4,848 nucleotides of DNA from a virus. Taxonomy: Duplodnaviria; Heunggongvirae; Uroviricota; Caudoviricetes. Positions 1 to 4,848 of this stretch are shown in pieces (positions within the stretch are counted from its first letter, which is position 1; each line of letters begins with the position of its first letter). The notes under the pieces were generated by a model. It had not been told where the DNA came from. It made no database searches and saw only the letters and a list, made by a program, of their open reading frames with translations. The DNA lies in IMG/VR virus record IMGVR_UViG_2617270960_000012, one strand, 5' to 3'. Position numbers and translations under genes: made by a program.

Positions 1-504
1 TTATTGATAGTGTTTTATGTTCAGATAATGCCCGATGATTTTGTCATGCAGCTCCACCGATTTTGAGAACGACAGCGACTTCCGTCCCAGCCGTGCCAGG
101 TGCTGCCTCAGATTCAGGTTATGCCGCTCAATTCGCTGCGTATATCGCTTGCTGATTACGTGCAGCTTTCCCTTCAGGCGGGATTCATACAGCGGCCAGC
201 CATCCGTCATCCATATCACCACGTCAAAGGGTGACAGCAGGCTCATAAGACGCCCCAGCGTCGCCATAGTGCGTTCACCGAATACGTGCGCAACAACCGT
301 CTTCCGGAGCCTGTCATACGCGTAAAACAGCCAGCGCTGGCGCGATTTAGCCCCGACATAGCCCCACTGTTCGTCCATTTCCGCGCAGACGATGACGTCA
401 CTGCCCGGCTGTATGCGCGAGGTTACCGACTGCGGCCTGAGTTTTTTAAGTGACGTAAAATCATGTTGAGGCCAACGCCCATAATGCGGGCTGTTGCCCG
501 GCAT
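1..504 (-). CDS. insB: IS1 transposase InsB frame; normally expressed as an InsAB' fusion by -1 ribosomal frameshift
   Basis: The 167-aa ORF from the track matches IS1 InsB along its length (…[18 protein letters not shown]…[39 protein letters not shown]…). The stop codon is at the window edge (1-3 reverse complement). Confidence 0.9.
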
Positions 505-696
505 CCAACGCCATTCATGGCCATATCAATGATTTTCTGGTGCGTACCGGGTTGAGAAGCGGTGTAAGAACTGCAGTTGCCATGTTTTACGGCAGTGAGA
601 GCAGAGATAGCGCTGATGTCCGGCGATGCTTTTGCCGTTACGCACCACCCCGTCAGTAGCTGAACAGGAGGGACAGCTGATAGAAACAGAAGCCAC
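423..696 (-). pseudogene. insA: IS1 insA with an internal frameshift; the N-terminal zinc-finger part and the C-terminal HTH part are in different frames
   Basis: Translated from GTG at 696 (minus), the frame reads [43 protein letters not shown], then shifts and stops at 526-528. The InsA C-terminus ([33 protein letters not shown]…LKNSGRSR) appears only in another frame, fused to unrelated upstream sequence in the 423..725 track ORF. Compared with canonical IS1 as I recall it, this is a 2-bp deletion between window positions 568 and 569. The IS1 length in the window (751 + ~15) is also 2 bp short of 768. Confidence 0.6.
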
Positions 697-751
697 TGGA
701 GCACCTCAAAAACACCATCATACACTAAATCAGTAAGTTGGCAGCATCACC

Positions 752-967
752 CGCCTCTGCAAACGCTGCGACCCAATAAGCGAAATGCTTCGCTCATATA
801 AACCAGATGAACACACTAAGGACGCTATCGACTGGCTGGAAGATGATGACTGTGACTATCAGGAAAAAGCCGCTGAATGGTTCTGGGATGCAATAACCAA
901 AAGAGTTAAGGCTGAATATGCCTTCGCAATATTCAAACGCAGACACATTTTTGGAGAAGCAGCATGA
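752..967 (+). pseudogene. 3' remnant of a phage early gene truncated by the IS1 insertion; product unknown, possibly the partner of recT
   Basis: The frame of the 785..967 track ORF stays open with no stop back to the IS1 boundary at 752. There is no Shine-Dalgarno before the ATG at 785. Its TGA stop overlaps the recT ATG (ATGA at 964-967). Confidence 0.35.
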
Positions 968-1866
968 GCAATATCGTTGAATTCGTTAAACAGCAAGAGC
1001 AGTTATTCTGCGGAGCATTGACTGAACAGACGGTGACATGGGCTAAGGAAAGCCAGTTTGCAATTCAGTATTTCCAGAAAAATGATTACCTGGCTAAAAC
1101 GGCACTGGCAAATCCAACCAGCGCACAGAACGCCATCATCAATGTTGCGGCGATCGGCATCACCTTAAACCCGGCCAGCAAACTTGCTTATCTAGTTCCG
1201 CGCGACGGCATGGTTTGCCTTGATATCAGCTATATGGGATTACTTCACCTTGCACAGTCGACAGGATCAATTAAGTGGGGGCAATGCAAACTGGTGTACT
1301 CAAACGACACCTATGAATCAAACGGCCTTGATTCAGCACCAACCCACAAATACAACGCATTTGGTGAGCGAGGCTCTATTGTTGGTGGTTATTGCACGGT
1401 TAAAACAGCAGATGGTGACTACCTGACTGAAGAAATGAGTCTGGCAGAAATTAAAGCTGTGGAAGCAACGAGCAAGGCAAAGAATGGACCGTGGAAAACA
1501 TTCTGGGAAGAGATGGCGCGTAAAACAATAGTTAAACGCGCCAGCAAATACTGGCCTAAAGCCCAGCGACTGGATAATGCCATTCACCTGCTTAACGAAG
1601 ATGAAGGTATGCATCAGGAACCAGTTATGCCGCACAAATCAGAGGAAGATATACGCGAAGATGAACGGAAACGCCAGCAGGAAATAATGGATAAAGCACA
1701 ACTTCTTTGTGATGAAATGGCTCAAGCAGAAAACATGGATGATTTGAAGCGATATTTTGCAGAAGCATATCGCCTGACATCTGGAATGAAATTGCAGCAG
1801 AACGTACAAGCCATTTACGCAGAATGCAAAGCGAAACTGGAGGTTGCCAGTGAGCAAACTGTATGA
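964..1866 (+). CDS. recT: RecT-family single-strand annealing recombinase
   Basis: 300-aa ORF with GGAGA 6 nt upstream of ATG 964. The motif NGPWKTFWEEMARKTIVKRASKYWP matches the conserved core of E. coli RecT (NGPW..HWEEMAKKTAIRRLFKYLP). It carries a long charged C-terminal tail. Confidence 0.88.
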   Translation: MSNIVEFVKQQEQLFCGALTEQTVTWAKESQFAIQYFQKNDYLAKTALANPTSAQNAIINVAAIGITLNPASKLAYLVPRDGMVCLDISYMGLLHLAQSTGSIKWGQCKLVYSNDTYESNGLDSAPTHKYNAFGERGSIVGGYCTVKTADGDYLTEEMSLAEIKAVEATSKAKNGPWKTFWEEMARKTIVKRASKYWPKAQRLDNAIHLLNEDEGMHQEPVMPHKSEEDIREDERKRQQEIMDKAQLLCDEMAQAENMDDLKRYFAEAYRLTSGMKLQQNVQAIYAECKAKLEVASEQTV

Positions 1867-2332
1867 AATTGCCAATGAATACGCAAAATTGATGGATTCA
1901 GATTTAGAACCAGAGATGATTGCTGACACAATAGAAGGCATGGAAGGAGAATTTACCGATAAAATAGAGCAACTTCTTTCCGTCATTAAAAATGAATCTG
2001 GTTATGCCGAACGCCTCAAGGAAGAGGCAAAGTCACTGAATGAGCGAGCCACAGTAATTCAAAATAAGATTGACAGCATTATGGCGTATATAGCGTCATC
2101 GCTTGAAATGGTTGGCAAGAAAAAGATTCGAGCAGGTATTCACCAGGTAACAATCCGCAAACCGTCAGAAACTGTAGAAATCATCGACTCAAGCGCCCTT
2201 CCTCCTGAATACGTTGAGTTTGAAACGACAATTAAAGCCGACAAACTGGCAATCAAACACCAACTAAAAGCAGGAATAAATATCCCCGGCGCTCAACTCA
2301 AAGTTGGGAAACCTTCACTTCTTATCAAATAA
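1850..2332 (+). CDS. Siphovirus Gp157-family protein, commonly found next to phage recombinases
   Basis: The N-terminus (SKLYEIANEYAKLMDSDLEPEMIADTIEGMEGEFTDKIEQLLSVIKNE…) and the …VTIRKPSETVEIIDSSALPPEYVEFETTIKADKLAIKHQLKAG… region fit the Gp157 family pattern. Start is placed at GTG 1850 (GGAGG at 1839-1843, 6-nt spacer) rather than the track's TTG 1844. It overlaps the recT stop by 17 nt. Confidence 0.72.
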   Translation: MSKLYEIANEYAKLMDSDLEPEMIADTIEGMEGEFTDKIEQLLSVIKNESGYAERLKEEAKSLNERATVIQNKIDSIMAYIASSLEMVGKKKIRAGIHQVTIRKPSETVEIIDSSALPPEYVEFETTIKADKLAIKHQLKAGINIPGAQLKVGKPSLLIK

Positions 2333-2343
2333 CGGTATCGACT

Positions 2344-2658
2344 ATGAAAAAGACTCCATGGGAGAAATGGGAAGTCGATTTCTTGCGCGAAGTAGCGGCG
2401 ACAATGCCAGTTGAAGTTATCGCTGAAAAACTGGAAAGGACTGAAAAAGCAGTAATAGCAAAAGCAACAAGGATTGGCGCTGACATTGTTAGCCGACTTC
2501 GTGGAAGACGCTGGACAAGAGCCGAAGTATCACTTTTCGGTAAGTTCTCCGCAGAAGAAATAGCAATTGCAACCTGCCGCTCAATTTATTCAGTGAGAGC
2601 TATGCGATACAAGCTAAAAAAACTCGATGAAGAGAGAACAGGCATACGAATAAATTAA
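2344..2658 (+). CDS. Small protein with two tandem helix-turn-helix-like repeats (sigma-70 region 4 / Myb-like pattern); putative DNA-binding regulator
   Basis: 104-aa ORF with an internal duplication: [12 protein letters not shown]…[24 protein letters not shown] and [39 protein letters not shown]. No obvious Shine-Dalgarno before ATG 2344. Confidence 0.55.
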
Positions 2659-2674
2659 CAAAGAGGAATTTACC

Positions 2675-2842
2675 ATGAGAGGACTTGCATACAATCCCGG
2701 CATTCTTCCGGCAGAAATGATTATTCGCCAACGCGTAAAGCCAATGCCATCGAGAGAAGAATTGCTTAAGAGAAAGAGTTTCGGTTCTGTTAATGACAAC
2801 AAATATCTGAATGCGATGTGGCGCAAAGGAGGCAACCAGTGA
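2675..2842 (+). CDS. Small basic hypothetical protein (55 aa), not in the supplied ORF track
   Basis: ATG 2675 follows AAGAGGAA (2661-2668). Translation is [55 protein letters not shown]. Its TGA stop (2840-2842) overlaps the GTG start of the next gene (GTGA). Confidence 0.5.
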
Positions 2843-2843
2843 G
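2827..2843 (+). repeat. Copy 1 of an exact 17-bp direct repeat aggaggcaaccagtgag (Shine-Dalgarno plus GTG start module)
   Basis: Identical 17-mer at 2827-2843 and 3068-3084. It extends to 20 bp with one mismatch (t/c at 2844/3085). Confidence 0.85.
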
Positions 2844-3093
2844 TAATTCAGCACGACTACAGCTTGGTTTTTCACCGCTATCAAAAACTATCATGCTGGC
2901 AAAAATGCGCGATGTTGAAGGTGGACGTATGCGCGTTGGCAATGATCCAGGTCGTGATGTTACCAATGAGGCTGCTCAATTGGTGTGGCGACTGGTCATG
3001 GCTGAAGGTGGTGAGATCGCGTGGGAGCTGGATGATGGTTCTCGCATGGTGTTGAAGGCAGAAAAGCAGGAGGCAACCAGTGAGCAAGATTGA
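2839..3093 (+). CDS. Hypothetical small protein (84 aa)
   Basis: GTG 2839 follows AGGAGG (2827-2832, 6-nt spacer). Same frame as the track ORF 2818..3093. The gene body is flanked by two copies of an exact 17-bp repeat. It overlaps the next gene's start by 14 nt. Confidence 0.55.
3068..3084 (+). repeat. Copy 2 of the exact 17-bp direct repeat aggaggcaaccagtgag
   Basis: See copy 1. Spacing between copies is 241 bp. Each copy contains the ribosome-binding site and GTG start of the gene that follows it. Confidence 0.85.
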
Positions 3094-3793
3094 TTATCAG
3101 GCACTGCGTGCTAAGGCAGAAAAAGCAACGTGTGGTGTATGGTCGCTCGAATATGGAGAGAGCCGATTTGATGGTGATGATGCGCTAATTCATCGTGAAG
3201 TTGCTGGATATATTCCCATTTGCAGAATTGAAGGAGCGCATCCAGAAAGCGGTTTCGATGAAGATTTCCAAATGGAACAGCAGGCCAATGCTGAATTCAT
3301 CGCAGCAGCCAGTCCAGCTACCGTGCTGGCACTACTGGATGAACGGGAAAGAAACCAGCAATACATCAAACGCCGCGACCAGGAGAACGAGGATATTGCG
3401 CTTACGGTTGGGAGGCTGCGCGTTGAGCTGGAAGCAGCAAAAAAGCGCATAGCAGAACTGAAAGCCGAACCTGTAAGCCAAACTTACAAGTTGAACCAGC
3501 TATCGGGCAATTCTCCGGTAACTCCGGATGGTTGGATAAGCTGTAGTGAGCGGATGCCTGTAATTGGCGAGCTAAATTGGAGAACTAGTTTTCCTTTACT
3601 GGTTACGTGTGAGATCGGCGTTATACCTGCTTATTACGGCTTTGTGAGAGTTAATGGGAATAAGCATTATGGTTTTATGGAGAGTCTTAAATATGGAGAT
3701 GATAGCGGCAACCATCCTCAAACTAATGAATATGACCTGATTAGCAATGTAACCCACTGGAGCCGCTGCCAGAACCGCCGAGCAGGATGGTGA
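3080..3793 (+). CDS. Ea22-like prophage protein with a C-terminal DUF551-like domain
   Basis: 237-aa ORF starting at GTG 3080 after AGGAGG. The N-terminus [16 protein letters not shown] resembles Ead/Ea22-like proteins of enterobacterial prophages. A central coiled-coil-like stretch (RLRVELEAAKKRIAELKA) is followed by a C-terminus (GWISCSERMPV…NVTHW…) resembling DUF551. Confidence 0.65.
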   Translation: MSKIDYQALRAKAEKATCGVWSLEYGESRFDGDDALIHREVAGYIPICRIEGAHPESGFDEDFQMEQQANAEFIAAASPATVLALLDERERNQQYIKRRDQENEDIALTVGRLRVELEAAKKRIAELKAEPVSQTYKLNQLSGNSPVTPDGWISCSERMPVIGELNWRTSFPLLVTCEIGVIPAYYGFVRVNGNKHYGFMESLKYGDDSGNHPQTNEYDLISNVTHWSRCQNRRAGW

Positions 3794-4647: not shown

Positions 4648-4848
4648 ATGCAACACGAACTACAACCTGATTCACTGGTTGATTTGAAATTCATCATGGC
4701 TGATACTGGCTTCGGTAAGACCTTCATCTATGACCGGATTAAGTCCGGCGACCTGCCTAAAGCCAAAGTTATCCACGGACGAGCAAGATGGTTATATCGT
4801 GACCATTGTGAATTCAAAAATAAGCTCTTAAGCCGCGCCAATGGGTAA
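4648..4848 (+). CDS. AlpA/Xis-family small helix-turn-helix protein; excisionase or transcriptional regulator
   Basis: 66-aa ORF with GGAGA 9 nt upstream. The core …FIMADTGFGKTFIYDRIKSGDLPKAKVIHGRARWLYRDHCEF… fits the AlpA/excisionase pattern (…TG.S.STIYR.I..G.FP.P..LG.R...W…). The stop codon is the last 3 bases of the window. Confidence 0.78.
   Translation: MQHELQPDSLVDLKFIMADTGFGKTFIYDRIKSGDLPKAKVIHGRARWLYRDHCEFKNKLLSRANG

Follow-up and report, generated by a model that had tools for sequence, protein, structure and literature searches.

A tandem helix-turn-helix phage protein, Abc1-like by position and by one homologous unit, as a candidate DNA-binding accessory factor

What does a small basic protein contribute when its gene lies directly behind the recombination genes of a lambdoid prophage? 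The question is raised by a 4,848-nucleotide stretch of DNA from a virus of the Caudoviricetes (IMG/VR record IMGVR_UViG_2617270960_000012), referred to here as the window, in which an open reading frame (ORF) encoding 104 amino acids had been read, from the letters alone, as a double helix-turn-helix (HTH) protein and a possible transcription factor or modulator of sigma factor or RNA polymerase. The frame begins and ends exactly where this sequence-only reading placed it, in the following arrangement.

1 to about 770, minus strand: IS1
785 to 967: truncated phage gene
964 to 1866, plus strand: RecT single-strand annealing protein (Pfam RecT, E = 2.5e-33; PHROG 148, E = 9e-92)
1844 to 2332, plus strand: Sipho_Gp157/Mu Gam-like protein, putative DNA-end protector (PF05565, E = 4.6e-37; PHROG 253 "Mu Gam-like end protection," E = 3.7e-54); the RefSeq start corresponds to window position 1850
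2344 to 2658, plus strand, stop included: coding sequence of the 104-aa tandem-HTH protein (ATG at 2344, TAA at 2656 to 2658)
2675 to 2842, plus strand: DUF2737, P22 orf56 homologue (PF10930, E = 1.8e-29)
Downstream of DUF2737: DUF7446, then Ead/Ea22+DUF551, then two small genes
4648 onward: excisionase

The ORF at 2344 to 2658 is shown to be a real, expressed-looking gene under purifying selection. Its orthologue in the Salmonella phage SEN22 is 84% identical in nucleotide and 90% identical in protein sequence, with a dN/dS of 0.07. Out of 5,426 complete Escherichia coli genomes, 299 carry the gene and 298 carry it intact, at 95 to 100% nucleotide identity and on the chromosome every time, and it is present in 16 phage records, including HK140, mEpX1, Kapi1, Gally, Louie, Dewey, and SEN22. 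Frameshifts in the second half of some database entries (P0050, P0068, and P0088) show that the gene has decayed in places; that in the window is intact. Phage RefSeq records label the orthologues "transcriptional regulator, D5-like," E. coli records label them "hypothetical protein," and the Gally record uses "Anti-RecBCD protein 1." A literature search for experiments on the 104-aa protein or a close homologue found none, and the protein is not among the genes included in the accessory-gene screen of Silas et al. The "phage DNA-binding protein" of the DRT4 paper is a different one, ORF55.

The protein is therefore best introduced as what it is, an uncharacterized member of an already catalogued family. 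The fold assignment is correct but neither new nor surprising, and phage databases already list orthologues as a putative regulator. Added here are statistical proof of the internal repeat, a structural match to the DNA-binding domain (DBD) of GcrA, a link at the level of single units between Abc1, D5, and the window protein, and a gene slot kept behind five or more types of recombination module.

The window copy itself sits in damaged surroundings. In a 100%-identical E. coli chromosome, the region is a prophage remnant by tRNA-Arg (argW), between intS and torI/dsdC, in which the whole region upstream of RecT, with the early-left promoter pL, has been lost to IS1. Cut off from pL in this cryptic prophage, the window copy may be silent. 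Phage Gally, which is intact, has the same gene block in its early-left operon, after the c2 repressor and N genes. The early-region placement made in the sequence-only reading is correct, the region being the pL early-left operon. A promoter and terminator scan from 1800 to 3200 found sites no more frequently than in shuffled sequence, and the gene is read as part of an operon.

The proposal that the protein arose by internal duplication was based on a motif that is found twice. Copy 1 reads W6-x3-E10-V11 ... E24-V-I26-A27 ... R32-T33-x2-A36-V37-x-A39-x3-R43-I44, and copy 2 reads W57-x3-E61-V62 ... E72-I73-A74 ... R79-S80-x2-S83-V84-x-A86-x3-K90-L91. Copy 1 departs from the pattern as originally written in having E-V-I-A instead of E-(I/V)-A and a stretch from W to R that is 4 residues longer. 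In the single sequence, a Smith-Waterman alignment of the N-terminal half against the C-terminal half scored 21, indistinguishable from the mean of 21.3 for 5,000 shuffles. Because self-alignment of one sequence gave no signal, the repeat needed a profile test, and in an hhalign comparison of N-half and C-half profiles built from 14 diverse two-repeat homologues, the halves aligned with a probability of 90.7% (E = 1.3e-6, score 29.7), compared to a mean of 8.6, a standard deviation of 2.0, and a maximum of 19.2 in 200 column shuffles. The register of this alignment is the one originally proposed.

Longer relatives supply a further copy. Homologues of 150 to 155 aa in Salmonella and Citrobacter prophages contain a third unit, REWTTEELAxLMRxxNAEVAEITGRSIEEVGDKRL, that matches unit 2 in a profile comparison with a probability of 97% (E = 6e-11). 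Within the gene, no in-register repeat can be found at the DNA level, which indicates that the duplication is old; a 21-nt DNA pair at 2448 and 2553 is spaced by 35 codons, out of the protein-repeat register, and was taken as chance. Judged from these profile comparisons, the internal duplication is confirmed as real and ancient.

Structure prediction assigned each half of the protein to a separate three-helix HTH, consistent with the HTH-like repeats originally proposed. Together with the linker, the two units make up nearly all of the 104-aa protein.

2356 to 2481, plus strand: repeat 1, residues 5 to 46, neutral three-helix HTH (model helices, net charge 0 to +1)
2482 to 2508, plus strand: basic linker, residues 47 to 55, DIVSRLRGR (lowest-confidence interdomain region, no helix predicted)
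2509 to 2640, plus strand: repeat 2, residues 56 to 99, strongly basic three-helix HTH (long recognition helix, net charge +7 to +8)

The AlphaFold2 model, run on an 11-sequence alignment (mean pLDDT 82.7, pTM 0.46), contains two three-helix bundles, with helices at residues 8 to 17, 23 to 30, and 34 to 43 and at residues 59 to 66, 70 to 77, and 81 to 99. In each, the HTH is formed by helices 2 and 3, as in Myb/SANT domains. Values of pLDDT drop to 71 to 78 over residues 41 to 60, around the linker, and the pTM of 0.46 arises because the model does not define how the two domains are oriented relative to each other. The two-domain fold is shown at the level of this predicted structure. Foldseek found no significant match in the PDB for the whole two-domain model, leaving the arrangement without a solved precedent; the highest-ranking nonsignificant entries were other bipartite HTH proteins (Cbp1, Pax5, DUX4, and Tc3). 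In a viral structure library, 15 small phage proteins, most of them uncharacterized, matched at an E value of ≤1e-3.

Charge is distributed unevenly along the protein. The overall pI is 10.0, with the excess positive charge in repeat 2, a pattern common to most homologues, of which 12 of 14 are basic. Helix 3 of repeat 2, with a 14-residue recognition sequence, is rich in Arg, Lys, and Tyr, and the corresponding helix of repeat 1 is covered by a 13-residue sequence from T33 to residue 45. Repeat 1 also carries a conserved acidic/basic surface motif, IAEKLER, that is invariant across the homologues compared. The whole protein has one Cys and no His.

Profile searches place this protein in a large family built from the same unit. 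It matches PHROG 11492, a three-repeat profile of unknown function, with an E value of 5.6e-23, and because residues 4 to 93 align with profile positions 4 to 93 of 154, the protein corresponds to the first two of the three units; the homologue P0030 matches the full profile (E = 8.5e-69). It also matches PHROG 323, "transcriptional regulator, D5-like" (E = 2.1e-19), as do T5 D5 (E = 1.2e-71) and P22 Abc1 (E = 1.3e-23). An exhaustive profile search of 1.84 billion representatives returned 3,273 proteins at an E value of ≤1e-3, many of them 300 to 900 residues long with 4 to 10 tandem units, and one with an N-terminal helicase. The long multiunit relatives are called Myb_DNA-binding, Sigma70_r4_2, and GcrA by Pfam. 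By sequence comparison, the unit is a widespread Myb/GcrA-like HTH of bacteria and phages, and the window protein is its two-unit form.

The resemblance to sigma-70 region 4, LuxR-type, or Myb-like helices that was originally suggested proved to hold in part, since these longer relatives pass the Myb_DNA-binding, Sigma70_r4_2, and GcrA models and the window protein itself passes no Myb or sigma model. Pfam gave it a subthreshold match to HTH_12, no match to Myb/SANT (PF00249 and PF13921) at an E value of ≤1, and none to sigma-70 region 4 (PF08281). The multirepeat relatives P0053, P0058, P0075, and P0155 pass the Myb/SANT models; against PF08281, P0030, P0032, and P0034 score 21.2 to 25.1 bits (cutoff, 25.7), and the C-terminal unit of Abc1 passes with 27.0 bits. 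A LuxR-type comparison of the family profile with PDB sequences gave weak hits below significance to NarL (E = 0.012) and RcsB (E = 0.066), and phmmer searches of PDB sequences with the protein returned only noise. Sigma region 2, which serves core binding and −10 recognition, is not detected by Pfam, and a sigma factor or anti-sigma reading was rejected, with this region and the sigma-binding domain of GcrA both absent. Searches of NCBIfam, PADLOC, and Rfam gave nothing relevant and thus no link to a known defense system or RNA element.

The top structural match, and the closest solved fold, is the DBD of Caulobacter GcrA (PDB 5yiu), whose N-terminal DBD fold is present in the window protein. 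By hhalign, repeat 1 aligns with this domain at a probability of 49.6% (E = 1.7e-4), and its helix 3 shares 7 of 13 residues with GcrA T32 to G44. GcrA, a monomer when bound to DNA, contacts the backbone through T32, K39, and R42, the last of which also contacts bases (PMC5887438). These three residues correspond to the conserved S/T33, K40, and R43 of repeat 1. The base-reading positions of GcrA (R33, N34, I37, G38, and H41) are Glu or variable in the family; at the first four of these, the window protein has E34, K35, I38, and A39, and positions 35, 38, and 39 vary among its relatives.

Of special interest is the position of the gene, which persists as the genes around it change. In 80 loci on viral contigs carrying near-identical copies, Gp157 comes directly before the gene in all 80, and DUF2737 comes directly after it in 79; RecT is found in 79 and the gene before RecT (orf60) in 76 of these often truncated loci, and genes further downstream vary. 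DUF2737 also follows the homologue in the SEN22 and P0044 loci, where the upstream module consists of an exonuclease VIII/DUF3799 gene and a gene for a 189-aa protein. Nucleotide identity between SEN22 and the window falls to 24% immediately upstream of the start codon, placing a mosaic junction exactly there. Because an orthologue with 90% identity follows an unrelated module, the gene is not tied to one recombinase.

More distant relatives extend this pattern. The module upstream of P0030 and P0186 is Gam, a 167-aa protein, and YqaJ, and the gene upstream of P0164 encodes AAA_24 (Sak4-type). Across 79 loci from the three-unit clade, a YqaJ exonuclease is the most frequent product of the gene immediately upstream, and the gene before that encodes RecT, Rad52, or ERF. 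A further homologue lies in a remnant that lacks upstream recombination genes, where the only gene ahead of it encodes 88 aa. The slot is shown to be kept behind five or more types of recombination module, and where the operon is intact the family is a separate mosaic unit just downstream of recombination genes of any type. This position may reflect lambdoid synteny instead of function.

The gene order in P22 is kil-arf-erf-abc1-abc2-orf56-eaE, and the sequence of P22 orf56 visibly resembles that of the DUF2737 gene in the window. From this order and similarity, the window gene occupies the Abc1/Abc2 slot. Repeat 2 aligns with the C-terminal unit of Abc1 by hhalign at a probability of 92.4% (E = 5.2e-7), and repeat 1 aligns with that unit at 72.6%. 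BLASTP gave no alignment between the window protein and Abc1, and the whole family aligned with Abc1 at a probability of 14.7% (E = 1.8e-3), so that similarity over the full length is not detectable. In 69 of 71 loci, abc2 lies directly after abc1; no abc2-like gene occurs among the annotated ORFs of the window, where the neighbors are Gp157 and DUF2737. Abc1 is a nonessential aid to P22 recombination that acts by an unknown mechanism (PMC12315714, PMC9836394). An HTH is predicted in Abc1, expressing the protein causes cell death in a manner dependent on a P4 satellite prophage (bioRxiv 10.1101/2023.04.06.535777), and it sensitizes several wild hosts to phage (bioRxiv 10.1101/2023.04.06.535777; PMC12373910). 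The slot downstream of recombination genes and the PHROG 323 family common to Abc1, the most telling part of the context, had escaped the sequence-only reading.

We slightly favor a role as an early accessory factor that binds duplex DNA. A DNA-binding role is plausible from the pI of 10, the basic repeat 2, the GcrA backbone-contacting residues kept in repeat 1, and the match to PHROG 323, to which the double-stranded-DNA-binding D5 also belongs, and this part of the original functional proposal stands; nothing supports the other part, modulation of sigma factor or RNA polymerase. In intact phages, the gene is transcribed from the early-left operon, directly after the recombination genes, and its product would bind duplex DNA as a monomer. 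The recognition helices (residues 34 to 43 and 81 to 99) could sit in neighboring major grooves, as in Myb R2R3, bipartite Tc3, and paired domains, with most of the affinity expected from basic repeat 2 and the flexible linker. Bound in this way, it might modulate what happens to phage DNA during recombination, replication, or the passage from early to late gene expression, and it would not be a repressor of the classical dimeric kind. It would be a remote relative of Abc1 in the equivalent position and an abbreviated member of the T5 D5 family. Both DNA binding and an Abc1-like role are put forward on this combined analysis as probable properties of the protein.

Duplex binding could instead serve sequence-specific transcriptional control, with the two HTHs reading a bipartite operator in the phage, a co-resident prophage or satellite, or the host and switching promoters such as those for delayed-early or late genes, along the lines proposed for T5 D5 and for Abc1 on satellite P4. 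The regulator labels in RefSeq and PHROG point this way, as do GcrA, a transcription activator with the closest solved fold, the T5 D5 annotation covering late transcription and shutoff of early expression, and the suggestion that Abc1-triggered, P4-dependent death results from disturbed P4 transcriptional regulation (bioRxiv 10.1101/2023.04.06.535777). However, the labels come from homology and not from experiment, neither an operator nor a repeated DNA motif was found, and the predicted base-contacting positions vary across the family. The protein also lacks a dimerization or effector domain, and its gene lies among recombination and accessory genes rather than at a regulatory hub. We consider a transcription factor of this kind unlikely. 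An adaptor function of the SANT type, in which one or both repeats bind a host or phage protein such as RecBCD, the Gp157/Mu Gam-like protein, the annealase, or RNA polymerase/sigma, and which takes in the modulator of the sequence-only reading, draws on different features. Repeat 1 is neutral, has the invariant I-A-E-K-L-E-R surface, and does not keep the base-reading positions, and by these sequence traits it may bind protein instead of DNA; genes of the anti-RecBCD type adjoin in both settings (Gp157 here and abc2 in P22), and binding of Abc1 to RecBCD was never put to the test (PMC9836394). Against this stand AP-MS experiments on Abc1 that gave no clear partner (PMC12373910), the missing sigma-binding domain of GcrA, the high pI of repeat 2, which favors nucleic acid, and the occurrence of the same orthologue beside unrelated recombination modules, which argues against a specific phage partner. 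We regard an adaptor as improbable.

The GcrA match also raises the idea that a repeat senses N6-methyladenine (m6A) or guides or regulates a phage adenine methyltransferase, as the GcrA DBD reads m6A and repeat 1 has I38 and A39 in helix 3 where GcrA has the methyl-pocket residues I37 and G38 (PMC5887438). In the three-unit clade, an adenine methyltransferase gene belonging to one of three types comes next in 55 of about 69 loci, and the two-repeat relative P0097 is also followed by Dam and a C5 methylase. The window clade has DUF2737 downstream instead, with a methyltransferase in 0 of 80 loci; E34 and K35 stand in place of R33 and N34 of GcrA, and the family does not conserve the pocket positions. 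The Dam link goes mainly with the third unit, which the window protein lacks, and a control census of 79 Dam loci found a 55-aa single-unit gene before Dam in 21 and no upstream HTH gene in 37. An m6A reader was rejected for the window clade on residue conservation and this census, and a methylation-linked function of any kind is very improbable. A broader scheme, which we offer as a long shot, would make the Myb/GcrA-like unit a modular phage reader of DNA state. Arrays containing one, two, or three such units, lying after the recombination module and before an adenine methyltransferase, would detect or guide N6-adenine methylation, or some other mark separating phage from host DNA, and so steer recombination or evasion of RecBCD. 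In such a scheme, the window protein would be the methyltransferase-independent core, and P22 Abc1 would be another version.

Abc1, T5 D5, and a widespread prophage protein share one repeated HTH unit, and Abc1, named decades ago, is still without a mechanism. If the favored reading of a duplex-binding accessory factor is true, the window protein offers a testable handle on the role of an "accessory" gene in lambdoid recombination modules. Possible roles would then include marking of DNA ends or substrates, control of replication or late genes, and interference with satellites such as P4.

Among known systems, Abc1 (94 aa, pI 10.3) is similar in size and pI, and both genes follow an annealase gene and precede orf56/DUF2737 in the early-left operon. 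The W-x3-E signature is missing from the N-terminal unit of Abc1, which is not recognizably the same as that of the window protein, and while P22 pairs abc1 with abc2, the window gene is preceded by a Gp157/Mu Gam-like gene and has no abc2. From sequence and position, the window protein is best described as Abc1-like by slot and by one homologous unit, and not as an Abc1 orthologue. T5 D5, a 255-aa protein binding double-stranded DNA after which PHROG 323 is named, contains the same HTH unit; hhalign aligns the family with two consecutive units at D5 residues 141 to 229 (probability 88.7%, E = 2.5e-6). In the T5 record, D5 is listed as a DNA-binding protein that replication and late transcription require, and its annotation also covers shutoff of early expression. 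Unlike the window protein, D5 has about four units by sequence inspection plus Ala/Lys-rich tails, and it belongs to the replication gene cluster of a virulent phage rather than to a prophage.

GcrA and repeat 1 have in common the recognition-helix motif T-x-x-A-V-I-x-K-x-x-R-(L/I)-G. GcrA consists of one DBD, a linker, and a C-terminal zinc finger (CCCH) domain that touches sigma-70 (PMC5887438), binding its region 2, whereas the window protein has two DBD-like units and ends at residue 104 without such a domain; by its domain content, it is not a GcrA (PF07750). Myb R2R3/SANT, Tc3, paired, and DUX4 proteins share with it tandem three-helix units, a short linker, and the W...E...L pattern of the hydrophobic core, although the three regularly spaced tryptophans of Myb are absent and no Pfam Myb model is reached. 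Judged from the predicted structure, the closest parallel to how the window protein probably works is a short protein of the Myb R2R3 or bipartite HTH type.

Among viral contigs carrying three-unit relatives of the two-repeat helix-turn-helix (HTH) protein (L095 to L173), an adenine methyltransferase gene lay directly downstream in 55 of about 69 loci. These methyltransferases were of three kinds: Pfam Dam (PF05869) in 32, a 656-aa C5-methylase::Dam fusion in 13, and MT-A70 in 10. The gene immediately before the three-unit gene usually encoded a YqaJ exonuclease, and before that came an annealase gene of the RecT, Rad52, or ERF type. A converse census covered 79 near-identical Dam genes in viral contigs with close Dam homologues (L246 to L325). 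The gene upstream of Dam encoded a lone 55-aa HTH unit that equals the third repeat in 21 cases, the complete three-unit protein in 14, and tandem-HTH proteins of other kinds (154 and 179 aa) in 7; in the remaining 37 it was unrelated. The third repeat seems to move together with Dam, suggesting that the three-unit proteins arose when a two-unit gene fused with a Dam-linked one-unit gene.

Longer relatives also exist: P0053, P0058, P0067, and other database homologues are 300 to 900 aa long and carry 4 to 10 tandem copies of the HTH unit, and in P0053 a ResIII/Helicase_C helicase domain is followed by nine such copies. Some database homologues (P0050, P0068, and P0088) retain repeat 1 but have repeat 2 out of frame, and are frameshifted copies, presumably in decay, in some genomes. 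Within the window gene itself, a 21-nt direct repeat (2448 to 2468 and 2553 to 2573; 81% identity, 105-nt spacing) pairs the third helix of repeat 1 with the second helix of repeat 2; its register therefore differs from that of the protein repeat, and it is probably due to chance.

Neighboring genes in the window overlap by 14 to 25 nt, the size varying with the start codons chosen:

1844-1866, overlap of RecT and Gp157
2818-2842, overlap of DUF2737 and DUF7446
3080-3093, overlap of DUF7446 and Ea22

The two-repeat gene is flanked by spacers of 11 nt upstream and 16 nt downstream, and a Shine-Dalgarno sequence, AGAGGA, precedes DUF2737. In the identical E. coli chromosome, this region is what remains of a prophage at tRNA-Arg, with intS on one side and torI/dsdC on the other, and for this reason the operon in the window is without its pL promoter side. 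The features at the two ends are as follows:

about 1-770, minus strand, IS1 element with InsA/InsB-like ORFs
785-967, truncated phage gene abutting IS1, matching PHROG 3486 at positions 43 to 102 only
4648-4848, excisionase, the last ORF of the window, annotated by RefSeq in the matching genome as TorI (response regulator inhibitor)

The TorI-annotated excisionase marks this end of the window as a KplE1/CPS-53-type prophage end.

In Salmonella phage SEN22 (L174, 2800 to 3315), a 90% identical orthologue sits behind an unrelated recombination module consisting of exonuclease VIII and a 189-aa protein. Nucleotide identity between the window and SEN22 falls from 84% within the gene to 24% over the 200 nt upstream, which places a mosaic junction exactly at the start codon. 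The 98% identical orthologue in phage Gally (L001, 6001 to 6315) was labeled by its depositors "Anti-RecBCD protein 1, similar to P22gp35_Abc1." Similarity to Abc1 over the full length of the protein was not detectable; the two agree only in their slot downstream of the recombination genes, in the PHROG family that they match, and in the C-terminal unit.
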